DNA from: an uncultured Granulosicoccaceae bacterium | GTDB taxonomy: Bacteria > Pseudomonadota > Gammaproteobacteria > Granulosicoccales > Granulosicoccaceae | Assembly: GCA_937922675.1 (NCBI GenBank) | Contig: CALAJN010000002.1 | Location: forward strand, 153,192 to 217,191 | Direction of reading: 5' to 3' | DNA: 64,000 nt | Shown here: piece by piece, positions 30,670 through 38,732 of the stretch | How positions within the stretch are numbered: position 1 is the stretch's first letter | Layout: each line of letters starts with the position of its first letter | Notes under the pieces: generated by a model | Database searches by the model: none | What the model was told of the DNA's origin: nothing | What the model saw: the letters and a program-made list of their open reading frames with translations, nothing else | Made by a program: the position numbers and the translations under genes

Positions 30670-32313
30670 CTAGTAGTTGGCCGCCCGCTTGGTCATCTGC
30701 TGGCTTGCCAGATACTCGTCATAAGTGCCGTCAAAGTTGATCAGCGTGTGGTCCTTGATCTCGATGATCTGAGTGGCAAGTGATGACACAAACTCGCGAT
30801 CGTGGCTGACAAAGATAATGGTGCCCTCGTAGTGCATCAGGGCCTGGTTCAGCGCTTCAATCGCTTCCATGTCCATGTGGTTGGTGGGCTCGTCGAGGAT
30901 CAGTACGTTCGGGGATATCATCATCAACTTGCCGAACAGCAGGCGGTTTTTCTCACCCCCTGAACAGACCTTGACCTTCTTCAGGAAGTCATCTGAAGAG
31001 AACAGTAATTGACCCAGGATGGCCCGCACGATTTGATCGTTGTGAGACGCCTTGCGCCACTGACTCATCCAGTCAAACAGGTTGAGGTTGTTGTCAAAGT
31101 CTGCGGTGTTGTCTTGTGGGCAATAGCCGATGCTTGCGTTCTCGGACATCTGGATCTTGCCGGTATCAGGCGTAATTTCACCGAGAAGGCAGCGGAGCAA
31201 GGTGGTCTTGCCAACACCGTTTTCGCCGATGATGGCCAGACGTGAGCCGGCTTCCAGCATCAACTTGCCGCCTTCAAACAGGACGCACTCGTCGAAACCC
31301 TTGCTGATGTTCTCAAAGGTCACGGCTTGTCTGAACAGCTTCTTGTCCTGGGTAAAACGCAGGTAAGGGCTGATACGACTGGAGCGCTTGATGTCGTTGA
31401 GCTCGATCTTCTCCAGGCGCTTGGCGCGCGAGGTCGCTTGCTTGGCCTTGGAGGCATTGGCAGAGAAGCGGCTGACAAACTGCTGCAGCTCTGCTATCTC
31501 GACCTTCTTCTTCGCGTTCTCACTGTGCAGCAACTCGCGTGCGGCAGTCGCTGCTGTCATGAAGTCATCGTAGTTGCCCGGATAGACGCGCAGCTCGCCA
31601 AAGTCGATGTCGGCAATGTGTGTGCAGACGGTGTTGAGGAAGTGGCGATCGTGCGAAATGATGATGATGGTGCTCTTCTGGCGGCTCAGCACATCTTCGA
31701 GCCAATTGATCGCGTTGATATCCAGGTTGTTGGTGGGTTCGTCCAGTAGCAGGATGTCAGGTGCTGCGAACAAGGCTTGTGCGAGCAGTACGCGCAGCTT
31801 CCAGCCGGGGGCCACCTCGCGCATGAGGCCAGAATGCAAGGCCTCCTCTATGCCTGCACCACTCAAAAACTCTCCGGCTCGGCTCTCTGCGGTGTAGCCG
31901 TCCATCTCGGCAAACTCGACTTCGAGTTCGGCAACGCGCATGCCTTCTTCTTCGGTCATCTCCGGTAGTGCGTAGAGCCGCTCACGCTCCTGCTTGACCC
32001 TCCAAAGCCCCTCATGACCCATGATGACGGTGTCGATGACCGTGAAATCCTCGAAAGCGAACTGGTCCTGATGCAACTTGCCAATGCGGTTGTTGGGGGC
32101 GAGAGACACGTTGCCCGCGGTAGGCTCAAGAGCGCCTGACAAGATGTTCATGAACGTGGACTTGCCACAGCCGTTAGCGCCGATAAGCCCGTAGCGATTA
32201 CCGTCACCAAACTTGACCGAAATGTTCTCGAACAGAGGCTTGGAGCCGAACTGAATGGTGACGTTGGAGGCGGAAATCACGCGATGTACCTGGGTTTGAG
32301 GGCGCTGGTGCAC
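30670..32313 (-). CDS. ybiT: ABC-F family ATPase (YbiT-like)
   Basis: Two ABC cassettes (GANGCGKST and GENGVGKTT Walker A; LSGG and CSGGEKNR signatures). The N-terminus [33 protein letters not shown] is close to E. coli YbiT as I recall it. Confidence 0.85.
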
Positions 32314-32459
32314 CGCTTGGACTGACGACCCGGCACAGTACCACCCACGTCTACAACCTCGGTGGCGGTCGCGTCACGGCTGCTGTGAGCTATCGGGTGC
32401 ATCATGACGATTGCAGAGCGCGAGCAGTTCAGCAGCTTGTCACTGCGCGTGTAGCCAGT

Positions 32460-33710
32460 TCAGGGAATGCGTTCGGTGATCTCCAGTATCAACGGGGCAT
32501 CCGGCGTGCCGCCTTGCCCGATCACGAGCGGCTGCTCTATGGACCAGTCACCGGATGAGGCTGTCGGTTGACCAGACAATGATGCGCGTGCGCCGACAAT
32601 GACTTCCGGGAAGGCCGCAAGCGTCATGTTGGGTATCATCGCCATTGTCTCGTCCAGCGTCAGTGTAAGCGGCAAGTCAGCCACGCTAAGCCTTTGCACC
32701 GCAAGCGGCATGGGTGGGCCATTGGCCGCTCGCGCAAAGACGAACACGGCCGTCTCCGGAGATAGTGCCGCCGCGGCTTCCCCAAGTGACACACTGACAG
32801 TGATCGACACTGAGCTACTCGCGTCCGATGCGGCGGTTTCCGCGGGAGTCGCCATAGCCCCCAATTCAGCCTGCGAGCGTGCAGCGTATTGATCAACGGT
32901 GGCGACCGCCTGGCTGTTGCCATTGGCGTTGGCAATGGACCTGAGCGTGCCGAACAGGGTGAGTGCCTCCTCATGTTGACCGGCTTGTTGGCGCGCAACT
33001 CCGAGCAGCCATAGCGCTTGTTCGTTTTGATCGTCAAGCGCATACGCTCGCTCGAGCAGAGCCACCGGCTCGCCGGCGAGCAGTCCTCCGTCGCGCATGG
33101 CCTTTGCCTCGGCAAGACTTGTCATGGTGCCTACATCGTCGGTGTCGAATTCCAGGGCACGGGTCAGTGCATCGGAGGCCTTGTCGAATTCAGAGGTTGC
33201 CAGGTAGGTTCGCCCCAACATGCGCCATCCTGTGACGTCTTCCGGGTTCTGCGCAAGCCGTTGCTCCAATCCGGCGATCAGCTCTGGCATCGAAGGCATG
33301 CTTCGATCGTCTGTATTGGCTGCCACCGCTGGGTCAATTGCTGCGGGTGTGCCAATTTTTGCGTAGAGCCAGGCAGCGCTGATCGGTATGGCGATCACCA
33401 TCACGAAGATCAGGCCGATGTCGGCCTTGCGCGAGCGTTTGACCTGAGTATCCGGATCAAGCTCGGATGCGAGCGTCAGTTCGATGCGCGCCCGTTCTTC
33501 GGCATACTCGGACTCACTGGTGGCGCCGTTGGCGTGGGCGGCATCCAGCGCTTGCAGGCTCTCGCGAGCGATGGCGATGTTTTTCTCGGCAAGCCCCGGT
33601 GTGTTGAGGTGGTGAGGGTCCTCGCGCCAGACACTGGCGAAAAGTATGACGAGGGTTATCAGGACCAGCAACGCAGCCAGTACCAGGAAAAGAGTCATCA
33701 GAGCAAACAC
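32460..33710 (-). CDS. ccmI: c-type cytochrome biogenesis protein CcmI/CycH-like (TPR)
   Basis: Two N-terminal TM segments separated by a charged loop, TPR-like central repeats, and a C-terminal FVFARAANGPPMPLAVQRLSVADLPLTLTLDE typical of CcmI. Confidence 0.65.
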   Translation of the reverse strand: MFALMTLFLVLAALLVLITLVILFASVWREDPHHLNTPGLAEKNIAIARESLQALDAAHANGATSESEYAEERARIELTLASELDPDTQVKRSRKADIGLIFVMVIAIPISAAWLYAKIGTPAAIDPAVAANTDDRSMPSMPELIAGLEQRLAQNPEDVTGWRMLGRTYLATSEFDKASDALTRALEFDTDDVGTMTSLAEAKAMRDGGLLAGEPVALLERAYALDDQNEQALWLLGVARQQAGQHEEALTLFGTLRSIANANGNSQAVATVDQYAARSQAELGAMATPAETAASDASSSVSITVSVSLGEAAAALSPETAVFVFARAANGPPMPLAVQRLSVADLPLTLTLDETMAMIPNMTLAAFPEVIVGARASLSGQPTASSGDWSIEQPLVIGQGGTPDAPLILEITERIP

Positions 33711-33743
33711 GGTGGCTTGACGCGCAAGTATAGGGTGCGCAGC

Positions 33744-34283
33744 TCAGCTCTCTGCAAGTTTTCGGGTCGCGGATATTCCTGCGGACGGGGCAGACGCCAT
33801 CGCTCTGAGTCGACGCTGCAGCGGAAGACGCCGAATGGCCGATAGACGGTCTATGAACAGCTTGCCGTCCAGATGATCTAGCTCGTGCTGCAGGCAAACG
33901 GCGTGCATATTTTCCAGAGTGCGCTCAAAAGGCGTTCCGTGCCGATCACAAGCCCTCACGACGATCGTTCCTGATCGGATAACCTTGGCGCTTATACCCG
34001 GCAGGGACAGACAGGCTTCGGTCGCGATGGCCAGGCCCGATCGAGATATGATTTGCGGGTTGACGTACTCCTGAAGCGCCGAGCCATCGTCAGACAGATC
34101 CATGACCAGAACGCGCTTGAGTTCACCGACTTGCGGGGCGCACAACCCGATGCCAGGCGTGGCGTACACGGTGTCTGCAAGATCATTCAACAGCGTTGAC
34201 AATGACTCGTCGAAGGCGTGAACGGGTTGGCAAACGGTTCTCAGCGCCGAGTGCGGGTATTCCAGAATGGGCTGCTCAGCCAT
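33744..34283 (-). CDS. def: peptide deformylase
   Basis: Motifs GIGLCAPQVG, EACLSLPG and QHELDHLDGKLF. All three metal ligands are present. The start lies 9 nt after the pucC stop. Confidence 0.9.
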   Translation of the reverse strand: MAEQPILEYPHSALRTVCQPVHAFDESLSTLLNDLADTVYATPGIGLCAPQVGELKRVLVMDLSDDGSALQEYVNPQIISRSGLAIATEACLSLPGISAKVIRSGTIVVRACDRHGTPFERTLENMHAVCLQHELDHLDGKLFIDRLSAIRRLPLQRRLRAMASAPSAGISATRKLAES

Positions 34284-34292
34284 GCTTCAAGG

Positions 34293-35762
34293 TCAATGGG
34301 CGACGTGGTGCTTGATGCTGCCCCGATATGCGCGGGCGCTGCGGCTACGTAACAGCGGCCAGGTCGCCACCACGGTGACCAACAGTAGTGTGACTTCAAT
34401 GACGTACACCGCGACATAGCCCCCGGCAAGACCGAGCGAGCTTTCGCTAGCCTGCAGGGCGGCATTGACGGCATCTCTGATGATGCCGCTGGCTGCGATC
34501 GCAATACCAGCAGCGGTCGCTTGTACAGCGCCCCAGGCACCCATGGCCAGGCCTGCTTGGTGCGCCGGTGCACGCATCATGGTCGCTGTTAGTGTGCCAT
34601 GACCGAACAAGGCAGCGCCAAAGCCGATCATGAAATTGCCCACTAAAAACAGTGCCGGTGTACTCAACGGCGCCGCGCTCATGACCAGGACAAACGCAGG
34701 GATTCCAATCAAGACACCGTGCAGCACGATTTTGTAGGGATCCTCGCCTCGACCCAGCACACGCGAGGCATAGCCAAAGCCCAACAGGCCACCCAGGGCG
34801 AGCAGGGCGGTGAGCTTGGTTGTCGCACTGACCGACATCAGTAGTACATGACCACCGAAGGGCTCCAGCAGAACGTCTGCCATGCCGAAGGCCAGTGTGC
34901 CAACGCCAATAATGATCAACAGACGCATGGCGTCTGCACCCTGACTGAAGCGTGCCCACGACTCGCTGAACGTCGGATCAGCGGGGGCGTCCTTCCTGCT
35001 GGCGCCGAGCGTCTCCTGTTGCCACATCGCCACAAAGTTCAGCAGTACGGTAAGCACCGCTGCTCCTTGTATGACCTTGACCAACTTGCCAGGCGAAAAC
35101 TCTTCCAGCGCCTTGCCAAAAATCAGCGCACTGATGAGCATGCCAAGGAGCAGGGTGACGTACATCAACCCTACAACCTTCGGGTGGGATTCAGGCTCGG
35201 TCAGGTCAGTGGCCAGTGCAAGCCCCGCGGTTTGAACCGTGTGTACTCCCGCGCCCACCAGCAAAAAGGCCACCGCTGCTGAGACGTGGCCCAGCCACAG
35301 GGGAAAGTTATACGACTCACCTTGTTGTCCGAGTACCAGCAAGGCGAAAGGCATGATGGCGAAGCCACCGAACTGCCACAAGGTGCCTTTCCAGATAAAC
35401 GGTACGCGTCGCCAGCCAAGGGCACAGCGATGGGTGTCGGATTTGTATCCGATCAAGGCACGAAAAGGGGCAAATACGAGGGGCAGGGCCAGCATCACGG
35501 CTACCAACCATGCCGGTACGCCCAACTCAACGATCATGACCCGGTTAAGGGTGCCCACGAGCAAAACCAGCGCCATGCCTACGCTGACCTGAAAGAGTGA
35601 CAGACGTAGCAGTCGCCTCAGTGGCACTTCACTCGTTGCTACATCGGCAAAGGGCATGAAACGAGGGCCCAGATCCGCTAGCGTGGATACAAGCCGTTTG
35701 GCGGGTGGCCTGGATGGCAACCTGGGGGGCGTCTTTGAAGCCCCCTTGACACTATTGCTCAT
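34293..35762 (-). CDS. pucC: BCD-family MFS protein PucC/LhaA (light-harvesting complex assembly)
   Basis: 489-aa, ~12-TM ORF. The N-terminal LRLSLFQVSVGMALVLLVGTLNRVMIVELGVPAWLVAVMLALPLVFAPFRALIGYKSDTH...GWRRVPFIWKGTLWQFGGFAIMPFAL is characteristic of PucC/LhaA. It lies downstream of pucBA. Confidence 0.8.
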   Translation of the reverse strand: MSNSVKGASKTPPRLPSRPPAKRLVSTLADLGPRFMPFADVATSEVPLRRLLRLSLFQVSVGMALVLLVGTLNRVMIVELGVPAWLVAVMLALPLVFAPFRALIGYKSDTHRCALGWRRVPFIWKGTLWQFGGFAIMPFALLVLGQQGESYNFPLWLGHVSAAVAFLLVGAGVHTVQTAGLALATDLTEPESHPKVVGLMYVTLLLGMLISALIFGKALEEFSPGKLVKVIQGAAVLTVLLNFVAMWQQETLGASRKDAPADPTFSESWARFSQGADAMRLLIIIGVGTLAFGMADVLLEPFGGHVLLMSVSATTKLTALLALGGLLGFGYASRVLGRGEDPYKIVLHGVLIGIPAFVLVMSAAPLSTPALFLVGNFMIGFGAALFGHGTLTATMMRAPAHQAGLAMGAWGAVQATAAGIAIAASGIIRDAVNAALQASESSLGLAGGYVAVYVIEVTLLLVTVVATWPLLRSRSARAYRGSIKHHVAH

Positions 35763-35780
35763 GGCGCGCGTGCCGCAGTG

Positions 35781-36629
35781 CTAATCGTCTTTTTTCAGTA
35801 GTGGCCACCCGAACAGCGACGACACGGGTGCCGGGTTGTTGGACAACAGTGGCAGGCCGAAACTGGAGGTCTTTTGTGCTGGTCGCTCTGATGTGAGTAC
35901 GTCAATCCCCGCCTTATCAGACAAGGGAGCAGGGTTGTCTTTAAGTACACCCATACCGACTTTGGAAGATAGCGGAGCCGGATTGTCCGTCAGCGTGCTC
36001 ATGCCAACCTTGGACGACAAGGGTGCCGGATTGTCCGTCAGGGTACTCATGCCAAACCTGGACGACAAGGGTGCCGGATTGTCACTGAGCAACCCACCCA
36101 TGAGCCCACTTGTGGGGAGACTTTCTGTACTTTTCAATTCGGGGAAGGCGCGTGACATCCAGCTTCTGCGATGCGTCAGTACGGGTATATCAAGCAGAGC
36201 GGATAGAGGGGCTGCCTGCATCCAGGTGTGATAATCCAACTCTGGCACCTCGGGCATGGGCACGGATCGGCTTTGATCCAGTGTGTAGTCCACCTGCTTG
36301 CCCTCACCAAAAGGGGGAGTGACTATCAGAAGCGTCTTGCCTTCCTGAACCGTATCGGCATATACCAGGGCGTGACTGTCCGGGACGCGTGAACCGTCAT
36401 GAATGCTGACGATCAGTTCAGCCAATACGGCGCTTGAATCTGTGCCGTCCTTCTCACCGCGGTTGCGCAACCACTCGTTCTGGCCGTTGAGCATGGATGG
36501 TGAAAGGATGGATATTGCATCATCTTCGAGACCAGGCGACCTTGCCTTGAGGCTGTCCACCGATTCAAGCGCGTCCTGCTCGGATGCATAGGCTCTAGCG
36601 ATGGGGATCAGGTTCATCGTCAGTGGCAT
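35781..36629 (-). CDS. uncharacterised puc-operon protein with six C-terminal 16-aa DNPAPLSS repeats
   Basis: Start chosen at the ATG ending at 36629 (GGAGAG 7 nt upstream); the longest ORF begins at 36677. The N-terminal ~170 aa are soluble. The C-terminal 108 aa are tandem xxLxDNPAPLSSKxGM units. The stop lies 18 nt before the pucC start. Confidence 0.6.
   Translation of the reverse strand: MPLTMNLIPIARAYASEQDALESVDSLKARSPGLEDDAISILSPSMLNGQNEWLRNRGEKDGTDSSAVLAELIVSIHDGSRVPDSHALVYADTVQEGKTLLIVTPPFGEGKQVDYTLDQSRSVPMPEVPELDYHTWMQAAPLSALLDIPVLTHRRSWMSRAFPELKSTESLPTSGLMGGLLSDNPAPLSSRFGMSTLTDNPAPLSSKVGMSTLTDNPAPLSSKVGMGVLKDNPAPLSDKAGIDVLTSERPAQKTSSFGLPLLSNNPAPVSSLFGWPLLKKDD
35784..36107 (-). repeat. 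in-frame 48-bp tandem repeat array (six units, two nearly identical)
   Basis: The + strand shows repeated ggtgccggattgtccgtcag(c/g)gt(g/a)ctcatgccaa(c/a)c(t/-)tggacgacaag units. Confidence 0.85.
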
Positions 36630-36750
36630 GTCTAGTCTCTCCTGGAATGAGCGAGGGACCGGGTACTTGAGAGTCACTGAACCGACCAGTGGTGGCCGGA
36701 CTCGGCAAGCTGATCCCTGGGTAAGCGTGCCCTACGGGCAGGCTGTGATC

Positions 36751-36806
36751 AAAAGCTGATCCTGTGTGTGATCTGCCTGAGCAGATCGGTTCACAAGATC
36801 AGCTTG
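36751..36806 (-). terminator. compound stem-loop immediately downstream of pucA (partial terminator / mRNA-stabilising hairpin)
   Basis: The outer stem AAGCTGATC (36753-36761) pairs with GATCAGCTT (36797-36805). The inner perfect stem is GATCTGC-ctga-GCAGATC. A short U-run follows on the minus strand. Confidence 0.5.
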
Positions 36807-36812
36807 TTTACT

Positions 36813-36953
36813 TCAACCAAAAAAGGAGGAAAACCAACTGGAGTGCTTGAGCAGCGCGTAGTGCACACTCAGTGCCATGAAGGATACCCAGCCCAAGAAC
36901 AAGGGGATGCCGTAGGCAGGCTTGATCACAAGCCACATTCTGCTTTGATTCAT
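36813..36953 (-). CDS. pucA: light-harvesting complex 2 alpha polypeptide
   Basis: MNQSRMWLVIKPAYGIPLFLGWVSFMALSVHYALLKHSSWFSSFFG (46 aa) aligns without gaps to the Rhodoblastus acidophilus LH2 alpha chain as I recall it, including the BChl-ligand His31. A GGAGA RBS is present. Confidence 0.85.
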   Translation of the reverse strand: MNQSRMWLVIKPAYGIPLFLGWVSFMALSVHYALLKHSSWFSSFFG

Positions 36954-36963
36954 TGTTGTCTCC

Positions 36964-37122
36964 TTAGCCGAGCCAGGGTGTGAGAGCGAATGCCAGGACA
37001 TGCGCGATCAGCGCAATGACGAAGAACACGCGAGCACCGTCGATTACGTGCTTGTGCAATTCCTCGGCTTGGCCGATCGTCAGGCCACTCGGCCACACTT
37101 TGTCTGCGTTTTCAGTTGTCAT
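36964..37122 (-). CDS. pucB: light-harvesting complex 2 beta polypeptide (not in supplied ORF track; 52 aa)
   Basis: My own translation gives [52 protein letters not shown]. Beta-chain hallmarks are EELHKxVIDGxRVF and AHxLAFxxTPWL. GGAGA lies 8 nt upstream, and pucA follows 10 nt downstream. Confidence 0.85.
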
Positions 37123-37285
37123 CAGGTCCGTATCTCCAAAAAAACCGGAACATAGACGCGTGCACCACCTGCACGCGGGTCGTCCCAGTCGAAGCGGGAC
37201 ATCGCTGGATCACCCCTTGGACAAAATTCCCCGAGAGGTTGCGTCGCAACTGTGTGACGCATAGGAATGTGCCGAGCGTGTCTCA

Positions 37286-37314
37286 AGAGTAAACAAGGCT
37301 TGTAAAATCGTCAA
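37286..37314 (-). promoter_or_regulatory. candidate sigma-70 promoter for the puc operon
   Basis: The minus strand reads TTGACG (37314-37309), 17 nt, then TACTCT (37291-37286). The -35 element overlaps a TGT-N12-ACA palindrome. Confidence 0.3.
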
Positions 37315-37318
37315 CACA
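37301..37318. promoter_or_regulatory. PpsR/CrtJ-type operator candidate (TGT-N12-ACA), site 1
   Basis: TGTaaaatcgtcaacACA lies about 180 bp upstream of the pucB ATG. Confidence 0.45.
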
Positions 37319-37335
37319 CATTTACAGATGTAATC

Positions 37336-37353
37336 TGTCAACTTGGGTTGACA
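37336..37353. promoter_or_regulatory. PpsR/CrtJ-type operator candidate, site 2 (perfect TGTCA-N8-TGACA)
   Basis: TGTCAACttggGTTGACA is a 7+7 perfect inverted repeat that matches the consensus TGTcAN8TgACA exactly. Confidence 0.6.
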
Positions 37354-37581
37354 CATTCTTGACAAGAAGTGACCTGGCGCTTCGAAGTACTGCGAGTCTG
37401 GCAGCCGGGTTGTGCCTGCGCGGACACCGCCCGCGGCTGCTGGTGCCACAACAGGCCTGGCAAAGGTCGGTGCCAGTGCAGGGCTGGGTGCTGGTCGGAT
37501 GCACCGTGTGTCCCCGGATTTGAGTTGCAGGGATTCGAGTTGGCAGATCCCGGGTGGCAGCCTTGAGTGGAGCTTTGCGCT

Positions 37582-38445
37582 CTACAAACCGTTCAAGGGC
37601 ACTTTCAAGGCAGGTGCGCCTGAATCATCTGTGGGTAATTCACCGGCTCGCATGTTCACTTGTAGCGACGGAATAATCAGCCCGGGCACCTTGAGTGTGG
37701 CGTCACGTTCGGTGCGGAGTTTTACAAAGGCCTCACGCGTCGCGCCGTCACCCACGTGAATGTTGTTGGCGCGCTCATCAGCGACAGTTGTCTCCCAGGA
37801 AATCTCGCGCCCGTTCGGGCCGTAGTCGTGACACATGAACAGACGTGTCTCCGGCGGTAGCGAGAGGACGCGCTGGATCGAGTCGTAGAGCATGCCCGCA
37901 TCGCCGCCGGGAAAATCGGCACGCGCGGTTCCGCCATCAGGCATGAACAGGGTGTCGCCGACGAAGCCTGCATCGCCGATCACGTGCACGGTGCACGCGG
38001 GGGTGTGCCCCGGCGTGTGCATGACGCGCGCTTGCATGGTGCCTATCGAATAGGTGTCACCGTCTTCAAACAGTCGATCAAACTGCGAGCCGTCCCGCTG
38101 GAACTCGGTGCCTTCGTTAAACACCTTGCCAAACGTGTCCTGTACCACCGTGATGCCTGCGCCAATGCCGATGCGACCTCCGAGCCGCTCCTGCAGCCAC
38201 GGAGCCGCCGACAAATGGTCCGCATGTACATGCGTCTCGATGATCCACTCGAGGCTGAGCCCGTTGGACTCGATATGTGACGCAATCCGCTCAGCCTGAT
38301 CAGTGGCAATACGGCCTGCAGCGTAGTCAAAGTCCAGCACAGAGTCGATGACCGCGCAGGCGCTGCCCGCTGGGTCGCGCACCACGTAGCTGATGGTGTG
38401 GCTGGCCTGGTCGAAGAAGGCGGTGACTTCTGGAGATGCGATCAT
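37582..38445 (-). CDS. MBL-fold metallo-hydrolase (glyoxalase II / persulfide-dioxygenase-like)
   Basis: Start MIASPE has GGAGGG 6 nt upstream. Metal motif ETHVHADHLS, with later HTPGHTPA and a conserved Asp/His. Confidence 0.8.
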   Translation of the reverse strand: MIASPEVTAFFDQASHTISYVVRDPAGSACAVIDSVLDFDYAAGRIATDQAERIASHIESNGLSLEWIIETHVHADHLSAAPWLQERLGGRIGIGAGITVVQDTFGKVFNEGTEFQRDGSQFDRLFEDGDTYSIGTMQARVMHTPGHTPACTVHVIGDAGFVGDTLFMPDGGTARADFPGGDAGMLYDSIQRVLSLPPETRLFMCHDYGPNGREISWETTVADERANNIHVGDGATREAFVKLRTERDATLKVPGLIIPSLQVNMRAGELPTDDSGAPALKVPLNGL

Positions 38446-38732
38446 TTTATTCCCTCCGGTTATCGGGGATACCAATACTGCCGCCTGGATAGAGACCTCG
38501 CCTGCGTTCGAGGCGCTGGAGGCAAGCGTTGTTGTGCCGGGGGCACGGCGAGCCGACCACCATCGATGTTGTGTGTACCTGGGCGATGGGTTGTCTGGAG
38601 TACACGCGCGGTGAATTCAGGCGGCTGCTCGATGAGGGCGTGCCATGGAGTCTGAATAACCTTATTGACAACACGTAGCACGCGAACAGGCTAGTCTAGA
38701 CAGACATTACAGATTTTACGCATCTGCCCTTT

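Follow-up and report, generated by a model that had tools for sequence, protein, structure and literature searches.

A predicted five-gene puc operon for a probable peripheral LH2 antenna in a Granulosicoccus-type gammaproteobacterium

The stretch of DNA considered here, a 64-kb window (C2:153192-217191) of a 3.63-Mb genome assembled in 20 contigs with 57.5% G+C, carries on its minus strand a compact unit of five genes, pucB-pucA-orfX-pucC-def2, of which the first two appear to encode the small apoproteins of a light-harvesting (LH) antenna. Coordinates without a contig prefix are window positions, and C2, C4, C6 and C17 denote contigs of the same genome. A first-pass annotation, made from the sequence, had recognised the pucBA pair and the pucC gene downstream of it, and both identifications hold. 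It had, however, not listed orfX and had placed def2 outside the unit; these two bring the predicted operon to five genes. The flanking genes that it named (def, ccmI/cycH, a YbiT-type ABC-F ATPase and a metallo-beta-lactamase (MBL)-fold protein) are all present, although the def gene is not the housekeeping copy that it was taken for, being a second paralogue that belongs to the operon. The genes and the putative regulatory elements of the locus are collected in the table.

Table. Genes and predicted elements of the puc locus (aa, amino acids; nt, nucleotides; RBS, ribosome-binding site; MFS, major facilitator superfamily)
Feature	Position	Strand	Description
def2	33744..34283	-	peptide deformylase paralogue, 179 aa; PF01327 157 bits, TIGR00079 141.5 bits; starts 9 nt after pucC stop
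pucC	34293..35762	-	MFS-type LH2 assembly factor, 489 aa; PF03209 469 bits; begins 18 nt after orfX
orfX	35781..36629	-	282 aa from conserved start MPLTMNLIP...; between pucA and pucC
compound stem-loop	36753..36805	-	14-bp outer and 7-bp inner stem, then UUUU; begins 8 nt after pucA stop
pucA	36813..36953	-	LH2 alpha polypeptide, 46 aa; PF00556 31.9 bits
pucB	36964..37122	-	LH2 beta polypeptide, 52 aa; PF00556 38.5 bits
leader hairpin	37157..37177	-	8-bp GC-rich hairpin in pucB leader, then T7 run just before RBS; terminator-like scan
second TGT-N12-ACA element	37301..37318		TGTAAAATCGTCAACACA; 17 nt from the first; pattern search
PpsR/CrtJ-type operator	37336..37353		perfect palindrome TGTCAACTTGGGTTGACA; 214-231 nt upstream of pucB ATG; pattern search

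The two antenna genes are found exactly as the first-pass annotation had drawn them, separated by a spacer of 10 nt (GGAGACAACA) and with GGAGA before each start, and every motif that it had quoted is present. The start of pucB is further backed by an N-terminus, MTT[DE]xAEKV, that is conserved among Granulosicoccus loci, while the pucA product reads MNQSRMWLVIKPAYGIPLFLGWVSFMALSVHYALLKHSSWFSSFFG. Such genes easily escape notice: pucB is shorter than the 60-aa cut-off of the open reading frame (ORF) list, and such lists show pucA only in the extended form of a 62-aa ORF that opens at an upstream ATG (37001). A short ORF (37122-37202, minus strand) lies upstream of pucB, its TGA overlapping the pucB ATG. 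Both peptides score above the Pfam LHC (PF00556) cut-off of 23 bits, which bears out their earlier assignment to the LH family, and a six-frame scan of the whole genome with this profile returned only four matches above the cut-off, namely pucBA and pufBA; the genome thus holds one puc pair.

Comparison with chains of known structure points to the peripheral antenna, light-harvesting complex 2 (LH2), rather than to the core antenna (LH1). The nine best matches of the beta chain among PDB sequences are all betas of LH2 or of its variant LH3, with E-values from 4e-20 to 8e-11 (8z81_b 4e-20, 7ze3_B 5e-19, 1ijd_B 2e-15, 1kzu_B 5e-13), and LH1 betas follow at 4e-6 or worse. These nine come from Halorhodospira (Hlr.) halophila (8Z81), Rhodopseudomonas (Rps.) palustris (7ZE3, 7ZDI, 7ZCU), Rhodobacter (Rba.) sphaeroides (7PBW) and Rhodoblastus (Rbl.) acidophilus (1IJD, 1KZU, 9DWZ), together with 9LT4. 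The alpha chain matches LH2 and LH3 alphas only, with no LH1 alpha at E <= 0.01, and every alignment runs without gaps from residues 1-45 to residues 1-45. This includes the gapless alignment to the Rbl. acidophilus LH2 alpha that had been noticed at the outset (1kzu_A, E 1.3e-11). The LH2 and LH3 entries that rank above LH1 hold nine chain copies each, except for the crystal entries 1IJD and 1KZU.

A point to the contrary comes from NCBIfam, where the sole beta model, pufB, is named for LH1 and is passed by pucB with 64 bits against a cut-off of 61, so that an annotation pipeline would label pucB as LH1. Given that this is the only curated match, and that additional LH1-type pairs are known, such as pufA2B2 of Hlr. 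halophila (PMC11802735), it could be argued that pucBA form a second, core-type ring. The match is barely over its cut-off, however, and the beta chain fits LH2/LH3 better than LH1 by 14 orders of magnitude; with 20.5 bits, the alpha chain stays under the 35-bit cut-off set for LH1 alpha, the residues of the B800 site (beta-Arg31, beta-His23 and the alpha MNQ) are present, and pucC sits in the same operon whereas lhaA, whose product is only 54.5% identical to the window PucC, accompanies puf on C4. A core-type ring therefore has next to no probability in our estimation, and we hold with high confidence that the two genes specify the apoproteins, beta (pucB) and alpha (pucA), of a peripheral LH2 antenna in a marine host of Granulosicoccus type.

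The residues that hold the pigments lend themselves to direct comparison with solved complexes, the equivalences being taken from the alignment to the LH2 of Hlr. halophila (PMC11802735), with the Rba. sphaeroides structure paper (PMC8775250) also used. All five pigment-site residues are kept, namely alpha Met1, alpha His31, beta His23, beta Arg31 and beta His41. Alpha His31 and beta His41, the ligands of the B850 bacteriochlorophylls (BChl), correspond in the alignment to alpha-His31 and beta-His48 of the Hlr. halophila complex, and alpha Met1-Asn2-Gln3 forms the B800 site, in which N-carboxylated alpha Met1 binds the B800 Mg in solved LH2 structures (PMC11802735, PMC8775250). Beta Arg31 is the aligned hydrogen-bond donor to the B800 acetyl group and beta His23 the aligned partner of the modified alpha-Met1. 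The complex is most likely a nonamer of alpha-beta pairs, each pair holding a single B800 pigment together with two BChl a in strong coupling. The antenna proper is an ordinary additional member of the LH2 family.

Among the solved complexes, the B800-835 LH2 of Hlr. halophila (8Z81 a/b; PMC11802735), also a nonamer and also from a gammaproteobacterium, comes closest. It provides the best beta match and the second-best alpha match (E 3e-13), its alpha chain likewise begins with MNQ and carries Phe44-Phe45 at the C-terminal site, and its site of carboxylated Met1 (Cxm-Met1), with beta-His30 and beta-Arg38, corresponds to that formed with beta His23 and Arg31 here. The differences are that its alpha chain is 71 aa long, against 46 aa here, that it keeps the hydrogen-bond donor Tyr41 in place of Phe41, and that in Hlr. 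halophila an LH1 ring encloses the LH2 in a co-complex, which nothing at the present locus suggests. The alpha chain also aligns without gaps over residues 1-45 with that of Rbl. acidophilus LH3 (B800-820, strain 7050, 1IJD; E 2e-12) and LH2 (B800-850, strain 10050, 1KZU/1NKZ; E 1e-11), which share the same pigment ligands.

It is at the C-terminal end of the alpha chain, which stops at residue 46, that the spectrum of the antenna might be read. Complexes of the B850 type carry Tyr or Trp at alpha 44 and 45 (PMC8775250), and here Phe41, Phe44 and Phe45 occupy the positions of the red-shifting hydrogen-bond donors. With Phe at all three positions, no hydrogen bonds to the C3-acetyl groups would form and the long-wavelength band would be shifted to the blue. 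Substitutions in the Rba. sphaeroides alpha chain move the band to 838 nm (Y44F) and 826 nm (Y44F/Y45L), and LH3 (1IJD), with Phe44/Leu45, absorbs at 820 nm (PMC8775250); the LH2 of Hlr. halophila, with Tyr41/Phe44, absorbs at 835 nm (PMC11802735). Our best guess from these residues is a band near 815-830 nm, resembling B800-820, and not one at 850 nm.

Two considerations weigh on the other side. Two complexes with the same hydrogen-bond pattern lie 12 nm apart, at 823 and 835 nm (PMC11802735), so the rules are rough and the prediction is approximate; and two serines adjoin the site, so that alpha Ser42 and Ser43 could act as replacement donors. An ordinary B800-850 complex, in which the phenylalanines are offset by these serines, by Trp40 or by the geometry of the ring, would draw on both points. 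We nevertheless regard it as unlikely, given that loss of the donors at 44 and 45 brings Rba. sphaeroides LH2 to 826 nm, that LH3 lies at 820 nm (PMC8775250), and that Tyr41, the alternative donor of LH3 and Hlr. halophila, is here also replaced by Phe. A blue shift does not by itself make the complex an LH3. The absence of donors at alpha 44/45 is shared with Rbl. acidophilus LH3, whose non-bonding Phe44/Leu45 stand where B850 complexes carry Tyr/Trp. Two further marks of that class are missing here: LH3 uses Tyr41 as an alternative donor, where this alpha chain has Phe41, and its puc pair is one of several, between which light intensity switches, where this genome has a single pair. The antenna may thus work as a blue-shifted LH2, yet not as an LH3 in the Rbl. 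acidophilus sense.

While the antenna proper and its detached locus are ordinary, the conserved architecture of the operon is the noteworthy point. Eighty related loci were gathered with PucC, comprising 44 whose PucC is at least 65% identical to that of the window and 36 puc loci from Comamonadaceae and Sphingomonadales. In the former group def2 directly follows pucC at all 44 loci and is the last conserved gene of the cassette, and orfX is present at 39 of the 44. In the PucC tree, the def2-carrying loci form one clade (Shimodaira-Hasegawa-like approximate likelihood-ratio support 99) with a single change of state, and this clade spans Gamma- and Alphaproteobacteria, one Burkholderiales genome and Myxococcota, its members being Granulosicoccaceae, Woeseiaceae, Halieaceae, Wenzhouxiangellaceae, Geminicoccaceae, Rhodothalassium salexigens, one Burkholderiales metagenome-assembled genome (MAG) and Myxococcota MAGs. 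The position of orfX varies, after pucA in some loci and before pucB in others, always inside the block. In Granulosicoccus MAGs the cassette stands between orthologues of G000 C5:28-32 kb and C5:43-44 kb, and in the window it stands between the MBL gene and ccmI; these differing flanks indicate that the block from pucB to def2 moved as a unit. By the tree and the gene orders taken together, the five-gene unit belongs to a separate lineage of puc operons that has spread horizontally. In the library searched, a literature search for a deformylase together with pucC or LH2 returned nothing relevant and no description of this operon architecture was found, which is no proof of novelty.

The classical puc operons are pucBAC of Rhodobacter sphaeroides and pucBACDE of Rhodobacter capsulatus, and they share with the present one the order pucB, pucA, pucC, a stem-loop after pucA, PpsR/CrtJ palindromes upstream and a location outside the photosynthesis gene cluster. 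To our knowledge, they include neither a deformylase nor an orfX-type gene, whereas here orfX lies between pucA and pucC and def2 after pucC.

Neighbouring genes do not extend the conserved unit. As candidate operon members, ccmI was rejected, being absent at all 80 related loci, and so was the MBL gene, which is found upstream in no more than three alphaproteobacterial loci and matches weakly downstream in another, L031. The latter gene (37582-38475, minus strand), upstream of pucB in the window, is similar to the dioxygenase portion of Blh, a sulfur transferase/persulfide dioxygenase, with 374 bits against a cut-off of 625; homologues 48-50% identical to it stand directly upstream of the cassette in those three loci (L016, L020, L024) and in no Granulosicoccus locus. 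In some relatives the cassette is near photosynthesis-cluster genes, with crtI 3.3 kb downstream in L015 (Woeseiaceae) and, in L042 (Wenzhouxiangella) and L019, an LH1-type beta gene at a distance of 2-3 kb, and these layouts indicate that its distance from the photosynthesis gene cluster differs between lineages. Two loci of the comparison bear unexpected titles, Akkermansia muciniphila (L080, CALQKH020000012.1) and Bordetella parapertussis (L054, CAMCWS010000089.1); their puc operons fall inside the Comamonadaceae (Limnohabitans-type) clade, which suggests mislabelled or contaminated bins.

Of the two additional genes, orfX is the more unusual. Its product consists of an N-terminal YflT-like alpha/beta domain and about seven to eight sixteen-residue repeats, PAPLSSxxGxxxLxDN, which appear in the DNA as a 48-nt tandem period. 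It matches no Pfam or NCBIfam family, and PF11181 (YflT domain) matches weakly in 10 of 24 orfX homologues. An AlphaFold2 model has a predicted local distance difference test score of 80-97 for residues 1-130 and below 50 for the repeat tail, which comes out unstructured; Foldseek with this model gave no match better than E 0.59, and searches against the PDB returned nothing relevant, either with the single sequence (phmmer) or with the 24-sequence profile.

A link to a known LH2 subunit emerges indirectly. The LH2 of Rps. palustris (7ZCU/7ZDI/7ZE3/7ZE8; PMC9618040), whose alpha (7zcu_A, E 1e-13) and beta (7ze3_B) chains resemble those encoded here, wears a gamma belt, RPA1495; like orfX, this is a third protein from the puc locus that is built with sixteen-residue repeats. 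The gamma sequence from the PDB led to a 55%-identical homologue on a metagenome contig with the gene order pucC, a 215-aa gene and the gamma-like gene, and the 215-aa bridging protein, P0004, combines the N-domain of orfX, gamma-type FSGTPLL repeats and an orfX-type ending (NNPTPLSTWLGLPVLWK). P0004 aligns with the orfX family at 98.5% probability (hhalign, E 2.8e-15) and with the gamma chain 7zcu_S at a BLASTP E of 2e-18, bearing in mind that repeat sequences can inflate such values. Through this transitive link, orfX is probably a distant relative of the Rps. palustris gamma belt.

The relationship is by no means a close one, and two results speak against it. Direct comparison of the orfX family with gamma by hhalign gives a probability of 0.4%, that is, no direct similarity of sequence or profile, and the serine that ligates BChl in gamma (xSGxPL) is out of register with the orfX repeats (SxFGxPxL), where the conserved serines are those of PLSS. 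Gamma has about 97 aa and consists of repeats only, each repeat Ser ligating an extra BChl, whereas orfX adds an N-terminal domain of 130 aa; the repeat consensus is EYKGxSGxPLILKQEG in the one and PAPLSSxFGxPxL in the other. Further, no def gene adjoins the gamma-type loci that could be read. As for its role, orfX would be a gamma-like belt or an assembly subunit on the cytoplasmic face of the LH2 ring.

The def2 product is distinct from the housekeeping deformylase, which is encoded in a def-fmt-rsmB set at C6:101480-104393 and is 40% identical to it by tblastn (37% in a mafft alignment). The three catalytic deformylase motifs are intact in all def2 copies, with E-[SR]-C-L-S replacing EGCLS. 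A role for such an enzyme may be imagined at the B800 site. N-carboxylation of alpha Met1 needs a methionine that has been deformylated but retained, and a private deformylase therefore fits the need. In the proposed sequence of events, def2 would deformylate the alpha chain, a very abundant product, whose Met1 would be retained since residue 2 is Asn, and the free amine could then be N-carboxylated into the B800 ligand, as in solved LH2 structures. PucC would aid the assembly of the complex. Extended to orfX, this leads to a three-component LH2 in which def2 is the dedicated deformylase that frees the alpha-Met1 amine and orfX a domain-bearing gamma relative encircling the ring on its cytoplasmic face and perhaps carrying additional BChl. 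We put this forward as a tentative proposal, possible but with the balance of probability still against it.

An objection is that neither def2 nor orfX occurs at any of the 36 Comamonadaceae and Sphingomonadales puc loci, and that in many LH2 organisms both are missing from the puc locus. Neither gene is thus needed for LH2 generally, and def2 would be a helper, not a requirement. One may go further and suppose that the two genes are tied to pucBAC only through the shared descent of a mobile block, def2 being a surplus deformylase of general use and orfX a stress-type protein of unrelated function; the weak likeness of its N-domain to YflT stress-protein domains and the absence of a functional Foldseek match would agree with this. 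Yet the linkage persists across Gamma- and Alphaproteobacteria, one Burkholderiales genome and Myxococcota despite changing flanks, orfX shifts from one end of pucBA to the other and remains in the block, little space separates the genes from their operon neighbours (9 nt between pucC and def2, 18 nt between orfX and pucC), and the orfX repeats are linked to a proven LH2 subunit. Descent alone, with no role in LH2, accordingly seems to us rather improbable, though it deserves to be taken seriously beside the three-component proposal.

Upstream of pucB, the arrangement of candidate operators suggests how the operon could be controlled. Both TGT-N12-ACA elements lie 179-231 nt upstream of pucB, and as about 15 such sites are expected per 64 kb, two within 53 nt of one intergenic region are unlikely to have arisen by chance. 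The motif TGTCAA-N6-TTGACA recurs upstream of pucB in Granulosicoccus and in many further cassette loci; among 40 cassette loci, operator sites were found in 24, at a density of 1.94 per kb in the 400 nt before pucB against a background of 0.12, a 16-fold enrichment. The genome encodes PpsR in the photosynthesis gene cluster on C4 (TIGR02040, 417 bits), and this repressor may act on the operon at the two predicted operators, which would place the detached puc locus within the photosynthesis regulon. A scan of 32000-38600 for sigma-70-like promoters found none, a point against the reading adopted here.

Two hairpins were found at the locus. The one in the pucB leader appears in the leader fold, and the whole leader folds no better than shuffled sequences (z -1.2). 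The compound stem-loop after pucA is of another order: the 138-nt spacer that contains it folds with -60.1 kcal/mol (z = -5.5), a value reached by 0 of 200 shuffles. By analogy with the hairpins of the Rhodobacter puc and puf operons, it probably serves either as an mRNA-stabilising element or as a partial terminator, favouring pucBA over the distal genes, and would thereby give a surplus of pucBA message.

Beyond the locus itself, the genome has the equipment that an antenna would serve. The photosynthesis gene cluster occupies about 125.8 to 165.4 kb of C4 and contains bchI, puhA, lhaA, a bchM-like gene, bchL, bchH, bchB, bchN, ppsR, bchG, crtI, bchC, bchX, bchY, bchZ and pufBALMC. The aerobic Mg-protoporphyrin monomethyl ester cyclase gene acsF (521 bits) is isolated among non-photosynthetic genes at C2:145565-146749, 6.4 kb before the window start and separate from the C4 cluster, so that photosynthesis genes are spread over at least three loci, and bchE was not found in searches of the host genome. 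The presence of acsF, the absence of bchE and the full cluster fit an aerobic anoxygenic phototroph. The first-pass annotation had expected a BChl a-containing gammaproteobacterium, and the reaction-centre genes (pufLM and puhA), pufBA, pufC, bch genes, crtI and ppsR on C4, together with acsF on C2, agree with that expectation. It had also reported no puf, puh, bch or crt genes within the 64 kb; genome-wide searches concur, although not every ORF of the window was scanned. Two side observations concern the same genome. A third PucC-family gene, additional to lhaA, lies at C4:143821-145011 beside bchG and is 27% identical to PucC, and C17:71903-72745 matches the RuBisCO large-chain family at merely 218.6 bits and may be a RuBisCO-like protein, not a carboxylase. 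Phototrophic Granulosicoccus have been reported to lack RuBisCO.

By its PucC, the host is a Granulosicoccus-type gammaproteobacterium: the closest PucC relatives are those of Granulosicoccus MAGs (77-79% identity), and the tree places the window within an eight-row clade (support 99) whose remaining rows are all Granulosicoccus or Granulosicoccaceae MAGs. The same GTDB genus holds 47 other genomes, one of which is a 7.8-Mb single contig with no pucB or pufLM matches. In the family as a whole, 21 of 85 genomes have pufLM, and the LH2 beta chain is found in 15 of these 21 and missing from six. In one family relative (G028:C2:48086-48779) the pufL match is split and contains an in-frame TAA, and may represent a pseudogene or an assembly error. 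In the first report of a phototrophic Granulosicoccus, pufABLMC and bch genes are given and puc is never named (PMC9238374).

The puc locus is indeed detached from the photosynthesis gene cluster, as had been proposed: the two are on different contigs and, by contig coordinates, at least about 164 kb apart even if those contigs abut. Purple bacteria commonly carry a puc operon away from the cluster (Rhodobacter, Rhodopseudomonas), and in Granulosicoccaceae relatives puc lies 39-79 kb from puf, so that the detachment is in itself unremarkable. It might still be asked whether pucBA are a silent relic of a lost or transferred antenna that is no longer expressed or assembled, the locus being distant from the cluster and set amid housekeeping genes, and loss of pucB being on record in the family through the six pufLM-positive genomes without it. 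All five genes are intact, however, their RBSs are in place and their spacers short, none of the pigment-binding residues has been lost, the PpsR operator and the order of the cassette are conserved with relatives, and the photosynthesis gene cluster is complete, with reaction-centre and BChl genes present. A relic is thus very improbable, and a functional LH2 antenna is the reading that we retain.

Given that LH2 occurs in 15 of the 21 pufLM-positive Granulosicoccaceae, most phototrophic members of the family probably have a peripheral antenna, and likely a blue-shifted one, with its tuning at about 800-820 nm. That it should be overlooked is easily understood, as the puc genes encode fewer than 60 aa and the sole matching curated NCBIfam model names the beta chain "LH1". 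Further, a gamma-belt relative and a private deformylase tied to pucBAC in one clade suggest unstudied steps in the assembly of LH2. Should the three-component proposal prove true, the def2-linked operon would represent a distinct and widespread type of LH2, and def2 would offer a genetic handle on the origin of the carboxy-Met ligand of B800. Finally, Granulosicoccaceae are an abundant group of macroalgal symbionts, and a peripheral antenna in these bacteria would affect estimates of light capture under the kelp canopy.

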